A stretch of DNA of 64,000 nt, from the NCBI RefSeq assembly GCF_016026235.1, contig NZ_CP065613.1. One strand, 5' to 3'. The notes beneath the pieces are model-generated. The model did not search any database. It was not told the origin of the DNA and saw nothing but the letters and a program-made list of their open reading frames with translations. Source of the DNA: Escherichia coli (GTDB lineage Bacteria > Pseudomonadota > Gammaproteobacteria > Enterobacterales > Enterobacteriaceae). Made by a program: the position numbers and the translations under genes. This document shows positions 19,379-34,600 of the stretch, piece after piece; within the stretch, counting starts at the first letter, position 1; every line of letters starts with the position of its first letter.

Positions 19379-19474
19379 ATGCTGGGTAATATGAATGTTT
19401 TTATGGCCGTACTGGGAATAATTTTATTTTCTGGTTTTCTGGCCGCGTATTTCAGCCACAAATGGGATGACTAA
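19379..19474 (+). CDS. mgtS: Small membrane protein MgtS (YneM), 31 aa
   Basis: Hand translation gives MLGNMNVFMAVLGIILFSGFLAAYFSHKWDD then TAA; shorter than the ORF-track minimum. Confidence 0.85.
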   Translation: MLGNMNVFMAVLGIILFSGFLAAYFSHKWDD

Positions 19475-19501
19475 TGAACGGAGATAATCCCTCACCTAAC
19501 C

Positions 19502-19540
19502 GGCCCCTTGTTACAGTTGTGTACAAGGGGCCTGATTTTT
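19502..19540 (+). terminator. Rho-independent terminator after mgtS
   Basis: GGCCCCTTGT...ACAAGGGGCC hairpin followed by a T-run. Confidence 0.6.
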
Positions 19541-19549
19541 ATGACGGCG

Positions 19550-19650
19550 AAAAAAAACCGCCAGTAAACCGGCGGTGAATGCTTGCATGGATAGATTTGT
19601 GTTTTGCTTTTACGCTAACAGGCATTTTCCTGCACTGATAACGGATCGTT
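19550..19650 (-). ncRNA. mgrR: Probable PhoP-dependent sRNA MgrR; ends approximate
   Basis: Minus-strand terminator (hairpin ACCGCCGGTTTACTGGCGG then U8, plus coordinates 19550-19575) about 100 nt downstream of a PhoP-box direct repeat; position between mgtS and dgcZ matches recall of the K-12 layout. Confidence 0.45.
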
Positions 19651-19682
19651 GACACAGTAGCATCAGTTTTCTCAATGAATGT

Positions 19683-26190: not shown

Positions 26191-27649
26191 ACTTCACGGA
26201 ATATTTCGCCACGGTCGCTTTCGCGCCATGCGCTAATAAAGACAAGTACGCTTCCGTCACTTTTGCAGTAAACAAGCTATTGTCTGGCAAATCATCACCA
26301 AAGATTGCCTTAATCGCCAGCAATGACTGGACGCGCGCTTTCCCTTCGGCACTACTTTGTACAGCCTTCTGAATAACAGGTAACAGTGGGTCACTGATTT
26401 CTATCGGATTTCCCTGTTCATCAACACCACCGACATAACGCATCCAACCCGCGACGCCCAGCGCCAGCAGATCGAACTTGCTGTCATGCGCCAGATGCCA
26501 GCGAACAGAATCCAACATCCGCTGTGGCAATTTCTGGCTACCATCCATCGCAATCTGCCAGGTTCGATGACGTAACGCCGGGTTGCTATAGCGTTCAATT
26601 AATCGGTTAGCGTAATCTTGCAAATCAACGCCCTGCACTTTCAGCGTCGGCGCTTGTTCCTGCAACATCAAGCCATACGCCGCATAACGATAATGTTCAT
26701 CTTCCATGCAGTCATTAATGTGCTGATATCCAGCAAGATAACCCAAATACGCCAGGAATGAATGACTGCCGTTGAGCATGCGCAACTTCATCTCTTCATA
26801 AGGCAGCACATCACTAACCAGTTCGGCTCCCGCTTTTTCCCATTCTGGACGTCCGGCAACAAAGTTATCTTCTATTACCCACTGGCGGAAAGGTTCACAG
26901 GCAACGCCCGCAGGATCGCCCACACCGGTAAGTTGTTCGATTTTCGCCAGCGTATCCTCTGTCACTGCGGGCACAATACGGTCCACCATTGTTGATGGGA
27001 AAGTCACGTTATCTTCGATCCATTGTGCCAGTTTTTCATCAACGGCTTGCGCGTAGGAAGTGACAACGTCACGCATAACATGACCGTTTTCTGGCATGTT
27101 GTCACATGACATGACGGTAAATGCGGGAAGTCCTGCCGCTTTACGGCGAGCCAGCGCCTCAACAATCACCCCTGTTGCTGTTTTCGGCTGGTGGGGATTT
27201 TGCACGTCGGCAACGACCATCGGGTGATCGAGCATTAACTGTCCGGTCGCCGGAGAGTGGAAATACCCTTTTTCGGTGATTGTCAGAGAGACAATCGCGA
27301 TTTGTGGTTCACACATCGCAGCCAACACGGTTTCTAAGCCATCCATCTGTACGTGCAAGGCTTTTTTAACGACGCCAACGACGCGAGCCGTCCACGCATC
27401 GGCCGACATTTCCGCAACGGTATAAAGATTATCTTGCTGTTGTAAATCGGCAATTTGCTGTTCGCCACCGATTAAGTTGACCTCATAATATCCCCAGTCA
27501 CTGAAATGTTCTGTAGCAAGAATATCGGCATACACGCCCTGATGCGCACGGTGAAATGCACCAAAGCCTAAATGAACAATTCTTGGGGCCAGGTTATTAC
27601 GATCATAAACAGGGAGTGTCGCTTTTGCTGATAACAAATTATTTCCCAT
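26189..27649 (-). CDS. ydfI: Mannitol-dehydrogenase-family oxidoreductase YdfI
   Basis: 486-aa ORF, Rossmann-like N-terminus. Confidence 0.85.
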
Positions 27650-27738
27650 AACAATTCCTTAAATTTAAATATGGCAAGCTACATGTTTTGTTATATGAAT
27701 AAAAAATCCCCTCTCCGGTAAGAGAAGGGATTAAGGAT

Positions 27739-29022
27739 TTAAAGACTTCTGGAAGGTTGCGCAGCTCTTACAACACGCGGTTGATCTTCCGCAGCGTCTT
27801 CCAGCGCACTTAAATCACGGTCTTTCACTTCTGGCATTTTCAGCGCAGAGATTAAACCAATCACTGAATATGCCATGATCATAATGGCGATCGGATACCA
27901 GGATTCCGTCATGGTGCAGAAAATACCCGCCAGGATAGGACCAAAACCGGAAGCGATAAGACCACCAATTTCTTTAGAAATAGCCATCCGGGTAAAGCGG
28001 TTTTTACAGCCGAACATTTCTGCCATGGTAATGTTTTCCAGAGCAAATAATCCCAGCACCGCACAGTTATGAATCACAATCAGTGCAACCATAATGGTGC
28101 TCGGGGCATAGCTTTTATCTACGATGATAGAAAGCATTGGCCATGCCAGCACAATCGCGGAGGTATTCATAATAATATACGGGATCCGGCGACCAATTTT
28201 ATCGGATAACCAACCAAGGAACGGAATGGTCATAAAGCCGAGAATCGAACTAATCATCAATGCATCTGTTGGAATTGCTTTGTTAAACAATAACGTCTGC
28301 ACTAAATAGCCTGCAAGGAAAGTCTGAATTAACCCGGAGTTACCCGCCTGACCAAAACGCAGCCCTGTTGCCAGCCAGAAGGATTTGCTCTGGAACATGC
28401 TACCAGCAGGTGCAGGTTTTGCTGTCGGTTGGTTGCTGTCATTAACCTTCTCAAAGACCGGGCTTTCTTTCAGATTCATACGTAACCAGATAGCAAAGAC
28501 CATCACGACAACGCTCGCCAGGAACGGTATACGCCATCCCCACGCCAGCAGTTCCTCTTTACTGAGAATGAAGAACATAAAGGCCCAGATTGCCGTTGCG
28601 CTCAAGGTTCCGCAGTTAGTTCCCATAGCTACAAATGAGGAGATAATTCCGCGCTTACCTTTTGGCGCATATTCCGCCAGCATCGTACCGGCACCGGAAA
28701 TTTCCGCACCTGCACCCAATCCCTGAATAATACGCAGCGTCACCAGCAAAATGGGTGCAAAAACACCAATCTGTGCATAGGTCGGTAACACACCAATTAA
28801 GGTGGTACAGATCCCCATCATGGTGATGGTAATAAAGAGCACTTTTTTACGCCCTATTCTGTCGCCCATTTTGCCGAAAATAAATGCTCCGACAATACGC
28901 GCCACATAACCTGCACCGTAGGTTCCCATTGCCAAAATTAACGCCATTGCCGTTGATGATTCAGGAAAAAATATTTCATGAAACACTAACGCTGCGCCGA
29001 GCGAATATAACTGGAAATCCAT
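27739..29022 (-). CDS. ydfJ: MFS metabolite transporter YdfJ, apparently N-terminally truncated at the prophage junction
   Basis: 427-aa ORF starts inside the first TM helix with a stop two codons upstream in frame; ProP-like MFS proteins carry about 25 more N-terminal residues. Confidence 0.75.
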   Translation of the reverse strand: MDFQLYSLGAALVFHEIFFPESSTAMALILAMGTYGAGYVARIVGAFIFGKMGDRIGRKKVLFITITMMGICTTLIGVLPTYAQIGVFAPILLVTLRIIQGLGAGAEISGAGTMLAEYAPKGKRGIISSFVAMGTNCGTLSATAIWAFMFFILSKEELLAWGWRIPFLASVVVMVFAIWLRMNLKESPVFEKVNDSNQPTAKPAPAGSMFQSKSFWLATGLRFGQAGNSGLIQTFLAGYLVQTLLFNKAIPTDALMISSILGFMTIPFLGWLSDKIGRRIPYIIMNTSAIVLAWPMLSIIVDKSYAPSTIMVALIVIHNCAVLGLFALENITMAEMFGCKNRFTRMAISKEIGGLIASGFGPILAGIFCTMTESWYPIAIMIMAYSVIGLISALKMPEVKDRDLSALEDAAEDQPRVVRAAQPSRSL

Positions 29023-29626
29023 AATTCACAGGTGTTTTTTCCCATCCTGTGGTTTCCTTGGCGTTTTCTAGGTTTTTTCAGATAGTTGCATTTTTTAAAA
29101 AGCATCCTAAGTTCGATCTCAGTGTCTATCTGGGGCCTATTTCTGTCCCATATATGCCCCAAAAAAAACTCCCCAACAGATAAGTAGTTTTTTCATGGAT
29201 TTATGCGTAAAATCAAGAACGGCTGGAAATCATTCAATACTCACACTATCGAAAAATTTACCAGCCAACCGCAGCACGTTCTTGCATAAGGCGTGTCTGC
29301 GGTTTTTCAACTATTCAGATACATCACTCCCATCACATTCATTCCTCCGCATCAAAGGCATATAGGCTATATCACCTTGATATTTTTCTTTTTCAGATAA
29401 AAACTGTTATCTATGTATACTTTTAAACCCAATCCGTGTAGAGTCTCTGCATAAGATAGTTTACAGTTGCCGCTTCAGCTTGCGCCATAAACCGCCTGAT
29501 TTTTGCTGCCACCTGTTAGCATTCCTGTATACCTGAAACGACAATGTTTATCTACGAACTTTAAGAACACCCAAGATAAAAATTGTCAACTATATCATAT
29601 ATAACACATTACTAATTCGAGGCTAT

Positions 29627-29740
29627 ATGAACAGCATACTGATAATCACATCTCTCCTTATCATATTCAGCATTTTTAGTCATGCCCTAATAAAATTAGG
29701 GATTGGCATATCCAATAACCCAGACAAAACCGATGTATAA
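29627..29740 (+). CDS. Candidate small hydrophobic protein (37 aa) upstream of ydfK
   Basis: ATG with a GAGG Shine-Dalgarno 7 nt upstream; encodes [37 protein letters not shown] (one predicted TM helix). Confidence 0.3.
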
Positions 29741-29775
29741 GTCAACATATCCTGAATCAGACATACAATATCGCA

Positions 29776-30042
29776 ATGAAAATCAATAATATTTTAAGGA
29801 ATATCTTCATGAAATCAAAAGACACCCTAAAGTGGTTCCCTGCGCAGCTTCCTGAAGTAAGAATTATCCTAGGGGATGCTGTAGTGGAAGTAGCAAAACA
29901 GGGAAGACCTATCAATACCAGAACATTGCTTGATTACATTGAAGGAAACATAAAGAAAAAATCATGGCTGGATAACAAAGAATTATTACAAACAGCGATA
30001 TCAGTTCTTAAAGACAACCAAAATTTAAATGGTAAAATGTAA
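29776..30042 (+). CDS. ydfK: Prophage cold-shock-associated protein YdfK (alternative start at 29809 giving 77 aa)
   Basis: 88-aa ORF; internal MKSKDTLKWFPAQLPEVRIILGDAVVEVAK... matches YdfK/YnaE-type prophage proteins as recalled. Confidence 0.75.
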   Translation: MKINNILRNIFMKSKDTLKWFPAQLPEVRIILGDAVVEVAKQGRPINTRTLLDYIEGNIKKKSWLDNKELLQTAISVLKDNQNLNGKM

Positions 30043-30358
30043 TATAATAAACTTACTTTTTTATCATTTTTCCACTTTAACAACATTTTGCTCCACTTTT
30101 CCACGACCAAACAACTTGAAATCTGGTTAAAATAACACGCAACACTATTCTTCTTCCTTGAGTCCGCCCGGAACTCGAAAAACAAACCGAGTTAAAGCCA
30201 TTTTTCACAAAATCGATTTTGGGTCTCACCAAAATTACGGGGTTGCATACGCATTCGTTTATTTTCGAACGTGTACATACAAATATGCACAAAAATAATC
30301 ATAATTATTTTCTGAGATGCATTATGATATGAACACCAATTTCGTATAGAGTCTCACT

Positions 30359-30949
30359 ATGTCTCGAATTTTTGCTTACTGTCGGATATCAACGCTGGAT
30401 CAGACCACCGAAAATCAACGCCGGGAAATCGAAAGTGCAGGTTTTAAAATCAAACCTCAGCAAATAATCGAAGAACACATTAGCGGCTCAGCAGCAACCA
30501 GTGAGCGTCCTGGTTTTAACCGGTTGCTTGCTCGCCTGAAATGTGGTGATCAATTGATTGTGACAAAACTGGATCGCCTTGGTTGTAATGCAATGGATAT
30601 CAGGAAAACAGTGGAACAACTGACCGAAACAGGTATCAGAGTGCATTGCTTAGCATTGGGTGGCATTGACCTGACCAGTCCAACAGGAAAAATGATGATG
30701 CAAGTAATTTCAGCAGTCGCTGAATTTGAACGAGACCTTTTACTTGAACGCACTCATTCCGGGATAGTAAGAGCCCGCGGCGCAGGGAAACGTTTTGGTC
30801 GACCACCTGTGTTAAATGAAGAACAGAAACAGGTGGTATTCGAACGAATTAAGTCAGGTGTAAGTATAAGTGCCATTGCCCGGGAATTCAAAACCTCGCG
30901 GCAAACCATTTTAAGAGCCAAAGCAAAACTTCAGACACCTGACATATAA
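30359..30949 (+). CDS. pinQ: Serine-recombinase DNA invertase Pin (Gin/Hin/Cin family)
   Basis: 196-aa [23 protein letters not shown]... with catalytic Ser in the RIS motif and C-terminal HTH. Confidence 0.9.
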
Positions 30950-31046
30950 AAAATAATCTCGGTGTGAGATGCTTTACGTCTTCCAAGCCCCCTTCCTTGC
31001 CGTAAATGGAAAGATACATCTAATTATAGAATTTATATGTTTTACC

Positions 31047-31622
31047 CTACGGCAGTGCTGGCCATTCAATATCCTGTGCAGTTGACGTATCAACACGGTT
31101 CAGCAATACCCGATACTTTTTCCATGCTTCCAGCAACGAGATTTCTTCCTCCGTTGCAATTTCCAGATCTGCAGCATCCTGAAGCGGCGCAATATGCTCA
31201 CTGGCTACCTGCATCAGGTTGTTTTTTGTTTCTTCCGCCTCCCGGATCCGGAACAGTTTTTCTGCTTCCGTATCCTTCACCCAGGCTGTGCCGTTCCACT
31301 TCTGAAACTCCCCTTCCGGCGATAACCAGGTAACATTTTCCGGTAACGGACCGAGTTCAGAAATAAATAACGCGTCGCCGGAAGCCACGTCATAAACCGT
31401 TTTACCCCGATGATCTTCAACGAGATGCCACGATGACTCATCACTGTTGAAAACAGCCACGAAGCCAGCCGGAATATCTGGCGGTGCAATATCGGTACTG
31501 TTTGCTGGCAGACCTGTATGAGGCGGAATATATGCATCACCTTCACCAATAAATTCATTAGTTCCGGCCAGCAGATTATAAATTTTTATGGTCCGTGGTT
31601 GTTCACTCATTCTGAATGCCAT
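31047..31622 (-). CDS. tfaQ: Tail fiber assembly protein Tfa
   Basis: 191-aa ORF directly downstream of the stf C-terminal segment. Confidence 0.85.
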
Positions 31623-34600
31623 TATGCAAGCCTCACAATATAGTTAAATGCGATGTTTTTGACGGTGTTTTCCGCGTTACCAGCAGCGTTAACGGTGATG
31701 GTGTGTCCATGTGAACCAATCGCAACGGAGTGCGTATGAGCACCAATACCGACAGTATGCGCGTGTGCACCTGCAGATGCTGCTGTGCCGGACAGTGAGT
31801 GGCTATGATTACCATCTGTACTGGTATTAGCTAACCACCCCGTAGACATACCTACTGAGCCTTGTACACCCCAGGTATTTTGACCTGAGCTTGTATAACC
31901 ATATTGATAAGTATCTTTAAAAACACTGGGGTTAAATCGACGGCCATCTCTATGGCTGTGATTACCAGCTGCATTCGTGCTGCCACTTAAACTATGGGTA
32001 TGCGCACCAGTGTTATTCGTGGATTTAGTGCCGTAATCAAACGACGATGTGGTTTTCGTCCCCAAATCCGTACTGGATGCGCTGGCGCTGTGGGTATGCG
32101 ATTTAATGCCGTCCTATTCCTGAGACAATACGGCCCGACCACTGGTAGGTTTGCCCTTAATCGTCCAGCCACGCATATCAGGGATCACGCCTGACGGATA
32201 AGCCGCTGCAAGTTTCGGGTATGCAGATTTGTCAAAAGTCTGCCCCTGCATCAGGGCATAGCCAGACGGAACGGTATCTGATGGCCACGGGATTGGTGCA
32301 CCGACTGGATAAAACTCTGCAGGAGGATGAGCCGAGGTGTAAAGCTGCGCCCACGGCGACCAGTTTGCGTCGGTCGTATCCCGTCGTGAACGAATAAATG
32401 CCGGAGCATGAGCACCGCTTGTACCACTCCAGCCGATGAGTAACTCACCTTCGCCAACGGCTGTCATCCCTTTCAGGTGAATGATATTTCCATACGCTGT
32501 TGGATATCCGTTGTTATACACCTCGTATAACTCAAGACCTGTTGCCCCCTGCGTATTGTCTGTCAGCGCGGTTACCCGACCTTTTGAAGACAGATTAACT
32601 GATGATACTGCTGTTCCACCTGACGGTAACGCCCCGATCTCTGATGCCGTTGGCTTATTTCTGGAGTTATAGTCCCTTCGCCAGCCAGGTGAATAATCTG
32701 TTCCGTGATTAATATAGGTAAACTGGGCGTTAGTTGTTCCACCACCAGTGGAGGTGGTCGGTGTGGTAATGCGGATCGTCATCGCTGACTTTATCCCCAT
32801 TACTTCAATGACAGCTCCGGCGAGATGAATATTACCGCAGTCAGTATCAGTAATGATTTTATTATTGCCATAAGACCAGGAACCCTTGCACATCCAGTAG
32901 GGATGGTTAAATGCTCCCTGAGAATCCAGCCACTCGATAAACTGTGCAGTCGTCCAGTTTCCTGTTATTGTGCTTACTGACCCACCAAAGGCACGGCAGG
33001 CACCAATATTTTTCGTAAAGGTGTCTTTGCCAGGGATATCCGCACCGTTCTGATCTTTCTGCAGACGTTTCTCAGCATTGTCATAGGCTGTTTTTACTGC
33101 CTTTGGTGTCGCGGCAAGCGTTTCAGACGTGCTGTTGGTCGCGCTGCTTAGCTGGATTATCCCTTTCTGTGCTGTCGTTGCATCCTGTGCGGTGTATTTC
33201 CCGTTAGCCAGGTCATACGCGGCCTTAACGGCTTTTGGTGTTGCCGCCAGTGACTCGGAAGTGCTGTTAGTCGCACTACTGAGCTGTACTATCCCCTTTT
33301 TCGTCGTGCTCGCATCCTCAAGCGCCACAGCGGATGCAATATCCTCTGCCCGTTTTGCTGCTGTCTCGGCGCGCGTTGCTGCGGATTCTGCCGTACTCTT
33401 GCTCTGTGCTGCCGCCGTCGCACTGCCAGCAGCCTCTGTTGCCTTCGTGGATGCCGTCGTGGCGCTGCCCTTCGCTGCTGACGCTTGTCTGGTCGCCTCA
33501 TCTTTTGAAGCAGACGCCGATGAGGCCGATGACGCCGCCGAACTGGCGGACGATGCGGCAGCCGTTTTTGAGGATTCTGCGCTGGTTTCCGACGCTTTCG
33601 CGTTCGTTTCGGATGTCTTCGCTGCGGAAGCTGACCTCGCTGCTGCGCTGGCCTGTTCAGTGGCTTCGCCAGCCTTCGTTGTGGCTGTTGAAGCGGATGA
33701 TGCGGCGCTTTCTGCCGATTTTCCGGCGGCGATGGCACTGGCTGAGGCCTGCCCGGCACTTGTTGACGCGGCACTGGCAGACGACGCAGCCGCTGTTTTT
33801 GAGCCTGCCGCAGCTGAGGCGCTCTGTCCCGCTGCCGTCTCAGAAGACCTGGCGTTCGTCTCGGACGTTTTTGCCGCCTTCGCGGAATTTGCTGCCGCCG
33901 TTGCCGAGGAAGCTGCGCTACTGGCGCTCGAGGATGCGTTCGTTTCTGATGATTTTGCCGCCTCTTTTGAAGCCGACGCATCCTGGGCTGAGGTGGCAGC
34001 TTCTGACGCTTTCGTAGTCGCGGTGGATGCAGAAGTGGCTGCTGATTGTTGTGACGCTGCAGCATTCGTTTCTGACGTTTTCGCGGCACTGGCACTGGTA
34101 GCTGCCGCGCTTTTTGAGGACTCTGCAGCGGCAGCACTTTTTGATGCTTCAGTGGCCTTTGCTGATGCCGTTCCTGCGCTGGAAGACGCTGACTGAGCCG
34201 ACGACGCGGCCTGTCCGGCTGACGTGCTGGCTGCGCGTGCTAAGCCTGCAGCATCAGTTGCATGGGTTGCCGCCTCACGGGCTGATGTGCCGGCATCGCT
34301 GGCTGACTTCTTCGCGGCTGCTGTGTTCTGTGCCACCGCGGACGCGTTACGCGCCACCTCTTCCACCATCAGTTCAAAACGTCGCAGTGCCTCCGGACGG
34401 GCATCATCCTCCGTCATGGCACCGAGAAAATCATTCAGCGTACCGGGTTGAGAATCTTCATACACGGTGATGGTCCCGGCATGTGACGGCGGGAATCCTT
34501 CCACCAACAGAATAACGCTGTACTGACCGTACTCAACGTCCATGCTGTAACGCCCGGCTTCATCCGGATTTTCTGAGGCCAGCGTGTTCACCACCACCGC

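Follow-up and report, generated by a model that had tools for sequence, protein, structure and literature searches.

The closest described relatives of the small open reading frame (ORF) analyzed here are two identical proteins of Escherichia coli K-12. In Table 1 of VanOrsdel et al. 2018 (PMC6001520), the exact YnfT peptide was entered twice among the detected small proteins: once as ynaM, in the ynaE/ttcC interval of the Rac prophage, and once as ynfQ, in the ydfJ/ydfK interval at MG1655 coordinates 1632890-1633003 (PMC6001520). The 2024 y-ome paper (PMC11551758) lists the Qin genes with ynfT at the head, and this list starts at the same coordinate, so that the ynfQ of 2018 now bears the name ynfT. 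Immunoblotting of a chromosomally encoded C-terminal SPA fusion detected the protein, for which tetracycline ribosome profiling was also positive (PMC6001520). A protein identical to YnfT is, according to this published work, made in E. coli K-12. Retapamulin and Onc112 profiling (Weaver et al., 10.1101/511675) gave no start-codon peak for YnaM; we suspect that the peak is missing due to the presence of two identical copies in K-12, with the loss of multi-mapping reads. Searching the literature for the exact peptide string returned only PMC6001520, and the search on ynaM and ynfT returned detection reports only, with no paper found that assigns a function.

YnaM of the Rac prophage and YnfT share an identical 37-residue sequence. 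The ynaM gene lies just upstream of ynaE, a paralogue of ydfK, and beside the pinR invertase gene, that is, in the same position as ynfT. The two differ only by prophage and site, with Rac located at ttcA/ttcC and the prophage analyzed here inserted in ydfJ.

Identity and architecture of YnfT

The window, that is, the whole 64,000-nucleotide stretch of E. coli DNA that was analyzed, contains an ATG-initiated ORF of 37 codons plus stop (Table 1), in the position and frame reported in a preliminary description of this DNA. The ORF had been described as unannotated, which is incorrect: the RefSeq CDS ynfT (WP_120795384.1) has exactly the same coordinates, the peptide has been published, and two family profiles recognize it. 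The RefSeq comparison locus is 100% identical to the window over the 1336 bases compared (window 29023-30358), and in this record ynfT occupies locus positions 3605-3718, corresponding to window positions 29627-29740, flanked by the ydfJ pseudogene and, at its opposite end, by ydfK, pinQ and tfaQ.

The YnfT peptide scored 63.9 bits against NCBIfam NF041477 (cut-off 35; profile positions 1-34 of 34) and 96.2 bits against Pfam PF23676, 'YnaM-like' (cut-off 27; positions 1-37 of 37). It also matched PHROG 35882 (function unknown); PADLOC yielded no match for YnfT. The traits of the YnaM/YnfT family are present, namely, a length of about 37 residues, an N-terminal hydrophobic helix, a conserved C-terminal tail of 12 residues, and a lambdoid prophage site directly upstream of ydfK or ynaE. 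We consider it very likely that the ORF is a real gene and that it is the known ynfT of the YnaM/YnfT family. As a gene, ynfT is not new: it is already catalogued in RefSeq, Pfam, NCBIfam and PHROGs, and its expression was shown in 2018.

The single transmembrane helix and short polar tail that had been predicted from the sequence were both recovered. The most hydrophobic 19-residue stretch of YnfT comprises residues 4-22, with a Kyte-Doolittle mean of 2.52, and the only charged residues are K23, D33, K34 and D36. AlphaFold2, run on the single sequence, predicts one helix over residues 2-30 with a mean pLDDT of 88.7, reaching 95-97 over the first 20 residues. The hydrophobicity of YnfT is unique among the 322 ORFs of 30-50 amino acids in the six frames of the window. 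The Shine-Dalgarno core GAGG and the ATG are unchanged across the E. coli phages and Salmonella phage 118970_sal3; the spacing between them, previously given as 7 nt, is shorter (Table 1).

Table 1. Features of the ynfT locus in window coordinates, with identity of the compared segments to the Salmonella phage copy
Feature	Coordinates	Strand	Basis or remark	Identity to Salmonella copy
ydfJ, N-terminus missing, RefSeq pseudogene	27739..29022	-	RefSeq, ORF list	
87 nt upstream of ynfT				54%
ynfT Shine-Dalgarno core GAGG	29619..29622	+	sequence; 4 nt before ATG	
ynfT CDS, 37 codons plus stop	29627..29740	+	ORF list, RefSeq, NF041477, PF23676, PMC6001520 Table 1, dN/dS	81%
Predicted transmembrane helix, codons 4-22	29636..29692	+	Kyte-Doolittle 2.52; AlphaFold2	
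Invariant polar tail, codons 25-36	29699..29734	+	5 synonymous, 0 non-synonymous differences vs Salmonella phage 118970_sal3; two more synonymous in phage 2H10	
ynfT-ydfK spacer, 68 nt	29741..29808	+	promoter-like match TCAACA-16-TACAAT at 29742-29769	66%
ydfK, 77 aa, cold shock protein YdfK, Pfam YnaE family	29809..30042	+	RefSeq	83%

Distribution and selection

The whole block 29023-30358 was found by megablast in 2767 of 5426 complete E. coli genomes, with the ORF labelled 'ynfT: YnaM/YnfT family protein'. The ORF region itself (29600-29760) was detected in 2806 of the 5426 genomes (52%), at 3391 places and, among the matches listed, every full-length copy is annotated as ynfT or ynaM. In phages, blastn identified the ynfT-ydfK block in 13 records, 11 of which are E. 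coli lambdoid phages (mEp460, Tritos, 2H10, Turner and others); the remaining two are records of Salmonella phage 118970_sal3, with 78.7% nucleotide identity. A tblastn search of the phage collection with the 37-residue peptide yielded no match, likely because of the low-complexity filter and the short query. The YnaM/YnfT family is tiny: a HMMER search among 1.84 billion cluster representatives found four representatives, two of them truncated or degenerate. Given that the family is so small and barely diverged, the comparative evidence comes mainly from one Salmonella lineage.

The ynfT copy of Salmonella phage 118970_sal3 likewise encodes 37 residues and differs from the gene in the window by 15 synonymous and 8 non-synonymous changes, with 15 of the 23 differences at third codon positions (binomial P = 0.0017). 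The resulting estimates are dS 1.27, dN 0.099 and dN/dS 0.078, compared with a dN/dS of 0.079 for ydfK in the same pair of E. coli and Salmonella phage sequences. Comparison with phage 2H10 showed six synonymous changes and one non-synonymous change. The annotated ynfT frame alone is open in both species. The amino acid differences from the Salmonella copy map to the N-terminal end, the helix, L24 and the last residue; the tail carries none (Table 1). This pattern of substitution indicates that the ynfT reading frame is conserved under purifying selection that is as strong as that on ydfK. The checks proposed in the preliminary description thus gave positive outcomes, with the frame kept at a dN/dS of 0.04-0.08 and with ribosome occupancy already published in the tetracycline profiling data, alongside detection of the protein by SPA tagging.

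These comparisons bear directly on the reading of the ORF as a chance open frame in AT-rich prophage DNA that has no product of its own. The ORF is short, its family is narrow, with four representatives, and degenerate variants occur in some genomes, as would be expected of such a frame. The purifying selection and conservation of the frame, the hydrophobicity unmatched among the 322 comparable ORFs, and the published detection of the protein refute this reading for practical purposes. The ynfT ORF is more than a chance occurrence: it is the sole ORF this hydrophobic, and its frame is under purifying selection.

Prophage setting and the ynfT-ydfK pair

The broken end of ydfJ at 29022 marks the prophage junction, the prophage being inserted in ydfJ. 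From the truncated ydfJ to ydfK, the GC content is 36.5% over 786 bp, compared with 49.3% for the window, in agreement with the AT-rich prophage arm recognized earlier. The view that this flank is otherwise gene-free stands insofar as no other gene is annotated there, but the interval is not empty: a 3'UTR and terminator of the dinI-like kind, now orphaned, occupy about 29206-29306.

In the E. coli loci examined, which include those of phages 2H10 and Turner and of an O145 prophage, the gene order is an attachment site, integrase or DinI-like gene, followed by ynfT, ydfK, an invertase gene, a tail-fibre assembly gene and a tail-fibre gene. Salmonella phage 118970_sal3 has no invertase gene at this place, and the tail-fibre assembly gene directly follows ydfK. 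The ynfT gene is located at the extreme end of a lambdoid prophage, by the pin invertase and tail-fibre module, which is an accessory ('moron') position.

The linkage of ynfT to ydfK is constant. The 13 phage records with ynfT are the only phage records with a YdfK match in tblastn, and the pair occurs in 13 of these 13 records and in the about 2767 genomes that have the whole block, with ynfT on the same strand as ydfK and 68 nt upstream of it. Such an arrangement would fit a leader ORF, in which the translation of ynfT, rather than its product, tunes the transcription, stability or translation of ydfK, and the short 'ydfK 5' leader' RNAs are the attenuated product. The claim of a 'ydfK leader RNA' reportedly goes back to Raghavan et al. 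in 2011. Prematurely terminated 5'-leader transcripts of ydfK and ynaE co-precipitate with Hfq (PMC5089854, PMC4152368), which is consistent with this reading. However, the amino acids of YnfT are selected as strongly as those of YdfK, with five synonymous and no non-synonymous differences in the tail, and a stable protein accumulates. The spacer 29741-29808 has no terminator-like site, RNA 29590-29830 folds no better than shuffled sequences (z -0.61), and distant YdfK homologues exist without ynfT. We regard a leader function as the explanation of ynfT as quite unlikely, although a leader role and a protein role could coexist.

The distant YdfK homologues (Pfam YnaE family; 55-64% identity) come from Enterobacter, E. 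coli and Limnobaculum, and no ynfT-like ORF was found upstream of them in the loci from these three sources. Hence, the pairing is specific to one young E. coli/Salmonella clade and YdfK has no need of YnfT, so that any functional link between YnfT and YdfK is not obligatory. The distant YdfK/YnaE homologues are consistently divergent from a small gene, either of the YnfU family or unannotated, and some of them adjoin a GH94 glycosyl hydrolase gene or a phage lysis cassette. The divergent YnfU-type arrangement points to a second conserved small-gene pairing for the YdfK/YnaE family.

Several candidate regulatory sites were noted around the pair. The promoter scan found 7 matches compared with 5.9 expected, which is the chance level. 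Of the two promoter motifs published from gSELEX for ydfK and ynaE, the window has one, inside ydfJ (28620), and lacks the other, so these motifs are uninformative here. For ydfK and ynaE, a Fur-box cluster scoring 17.1 bits has been predicted, placed at +8 relative to the former ydfK start (PMC2189734). The AT-rich sequence GAAAATCAATAATATTTTA at 29775-29795 is located in the ynfT-ydfK spacer, just upstream of the ydfK start and, by our own mapping, would correspond to this predicted Fur-box cluster (PMC2189734). If the site is real, ydfK has its own regulation downstream of ynfT.

About 40-85 nt before the ynfT start is a 14-nt inverted repeat, GACAATGTTTATCT at 29540-29553 and AGATAAAAATTGTC at 29574-29587, whose arms are 93% complementary and separated by 20 nt. 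Upstream of ynfT, the Salmonella phage copy shares a single block (GATAAAAA..TGTCAA), and the right arm of the repeat, AGATAAAAATTGTC, overlaps it. The repeat may serve as an operator or as the -35 region of a promoter for ynfT.

Two further candidates were examined and rejected. The position at the tail-fibre and attachment end, together with the PHROG assignment of 'unknown function', argues against a holin or lysis gene, and the lack of an Rfam match and the folding z-score of -0.61 argue against a riboswitch or other structured RNA in the ORF region.

The element at 29206-29306 on the plus strand is about 100 nt long, 84-92% conserved, and has a match in 5376 of the 5426 E. coli genomes. 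In other prophages, an element of this type is found immediately behind a DinI-like gene, adjoining its stop codon, and has an intrinsic terminator at its end (CCGCAGCACG...CGTGTCTGCGG-TTTTT). Because the DinI-like coding part is missing in the window, the element is an orphan 3'UTR and terminator. A core-genome copy is located between ecpE and ykgJ. The element folds into two hairpins (-34.3 kcal/mol, z -5.59) and matches no Rfam family. The Klebsiella small RNA DinR is cut from the 3' end of dinI (PMC10907235); the likeness to the element in the window is by analogy only.

Elsewhere in the window, full-length matches were obtained on the minus strand to Rfam IS009 (RF02111) at 31081-31279 (220.9 bits, gathering threshold 117), which overlaps the 3' part of the tail-fibre assembly gene beside the invertase, and to the Hfq-binding RNA STnc560 (RF01407) at 19468-19681 (281.9 bits, gathering threshold 55). 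DicF had no Rfam match anywhere in the window. Alignment of the window with its best-matching RefSeq record continues only to about 35.4 kb, at 98.7% identity, and is patchy from there to 40.9 kb. Taken together, the lack of DicF and the end of the alignment at about 35.4 kb mean that the prophage at this Qin-type site differs from the K-12 Qin further in. In the closest RefSeq record, NZ_CP020107.1 (2513282-2524133), the major capsid gene of the prophage is interrupted by about 11 kb of inserted DNA, which has genes for an integrase, an Icd-like protein and a primase as well as capsid and head-decoration genes of its own. From this gene content, the insert looks like a phage satellite. The window diverges from NZ_CP020107.1 before the capsid insertion point, and the insert is known from the related strain only.

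Proposed role and comparison with known systems

YnfT is kept intact in active lambdoid phages and in 52% of complete E. coli genomes, under selection like that on ydfK. Our tentative proposal, which we hold to be possible but would not put at even chances, is that YnfT is a membrane-anchored modulator that acts through its tail. The strongly hydrophobic helix (approximately residues 4-22) would insert in the inner membrane. The C-terminus would probably be cytoplasmic, as weakly favoured by the positive-inside rule, because K23, the only flanking positive charge, follows the helix. The conserved tail may contact a host or phage partner, as suggested by its being the most constrained part of the protein. 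YnfT would then act in the mode of other bacterial small membrane proteins, without membrane damage. The invariant C-terminal tail is the part of YnfT to mutate, a handle added by this analysis, and a phenotype for YnfT would place it among the few small prophage proteins that have a known role.

Another and, in our judgment, unlikely reading is that YnfT and YdfK together form a two-gene accessory module of the prophage, with YnfT as its membrane arm. The tail would dock on a specific host inner-membrane protein and alter a host trait, such as cold adaptation or the exclusion of other phages, to the benefit of the lysogen. If true, such a module would explain the presence of an intact copy in about half of E. 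coli genomes, even in decayed prophages, and the 'ydfK 5' leader' RNAs, once proposed to be riboswitch-like, would be the ynfT mRNA.

Small size, hydrophobicity, a prophage location, AT-rich DNA and duplication are traits shared with Hok, Ldr, Ibs and similar toxins. YnfT shows them all, being small, very hydrophobic, prophage-borne, encoded in AT-rich DNA and duplicated in K-12, and a minus-strand promoter-like match at 29818-29791 would give an antisense transcript. YnfT might accordingly be pictured as a type I toxin-antitoxin toxin that damages membranes, or as a holin-like peptide, in either case restrained by an RNA until stress or phage infection releases it. Several observations argue otherwise. 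YnfT accumulates under ordinary growth; no Rfam match to an antitoxin RNA was found in 27000-32000 at E<=1; promoter-like matches are at the chance level (7 found, 5.9 expected); and PADLOC gave no hit. Furthermore, ynfT resides at the tail-fibre and attachment end and not in a lysis cassette, and the neutral polar tail, not the helix, is the most conserved part of the protein. We consider a toxin or holin-like peptide very unlikely. The preliminary description had left the choice between a prophage small membrane protein and a toxin: the former holds, ynfT being a genuine prophage gene for a small single-helix membrane protein, and the latter is the less likely, because the protein accumulates in ordinary growth, unlike tightly silenced type I toxins.

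More generally, type I toxins (Hok, Ldr, Ibs, TisB, ShoB) resemble YnfT as small hydrophobic peptides that are often associated with prophages or repeats and often multi-copy. They differ from YnfT in that, for the latter, no antitoxin RNA was found by Rfam search, the protein accumulates in normal growth, and the conserved polar tail is neutral. No similarity of YnfT to type I toxins was detected by Pfam, NCBIfam or PADLOC.

AcrZ, MgtS and KdpF are small single-pass inner-membrane modulators of E. coli, the class whose mode of action is proposed for YnfT. YnfT is similar to them in architecture only: these proteins of about 30-50 residues combine one helix with a short soluble tail, and chromosomal expression is apparently free of toxicity. 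Unlike these proteins, with which it has no sequence relationship, YnfT is encoded by a prophage rather than by the core genome.

By position, ynfT is comparable to lambdoid 'moron' genes beside the tail-fibre region, such as lom, an Ail/Lom gene being present a few kb away in a related record. Like these genes, ynfT is accessory, AT-rich, located at the late-operon or attachment-site end, expressed in the prophage state and, as far as known, dispensable for phage growth. The products are distinct: Lom is an outer-membrane barrel with a known role in host adhesion, whereas YnfT is a 37-residue predicted inner-membrane helix.
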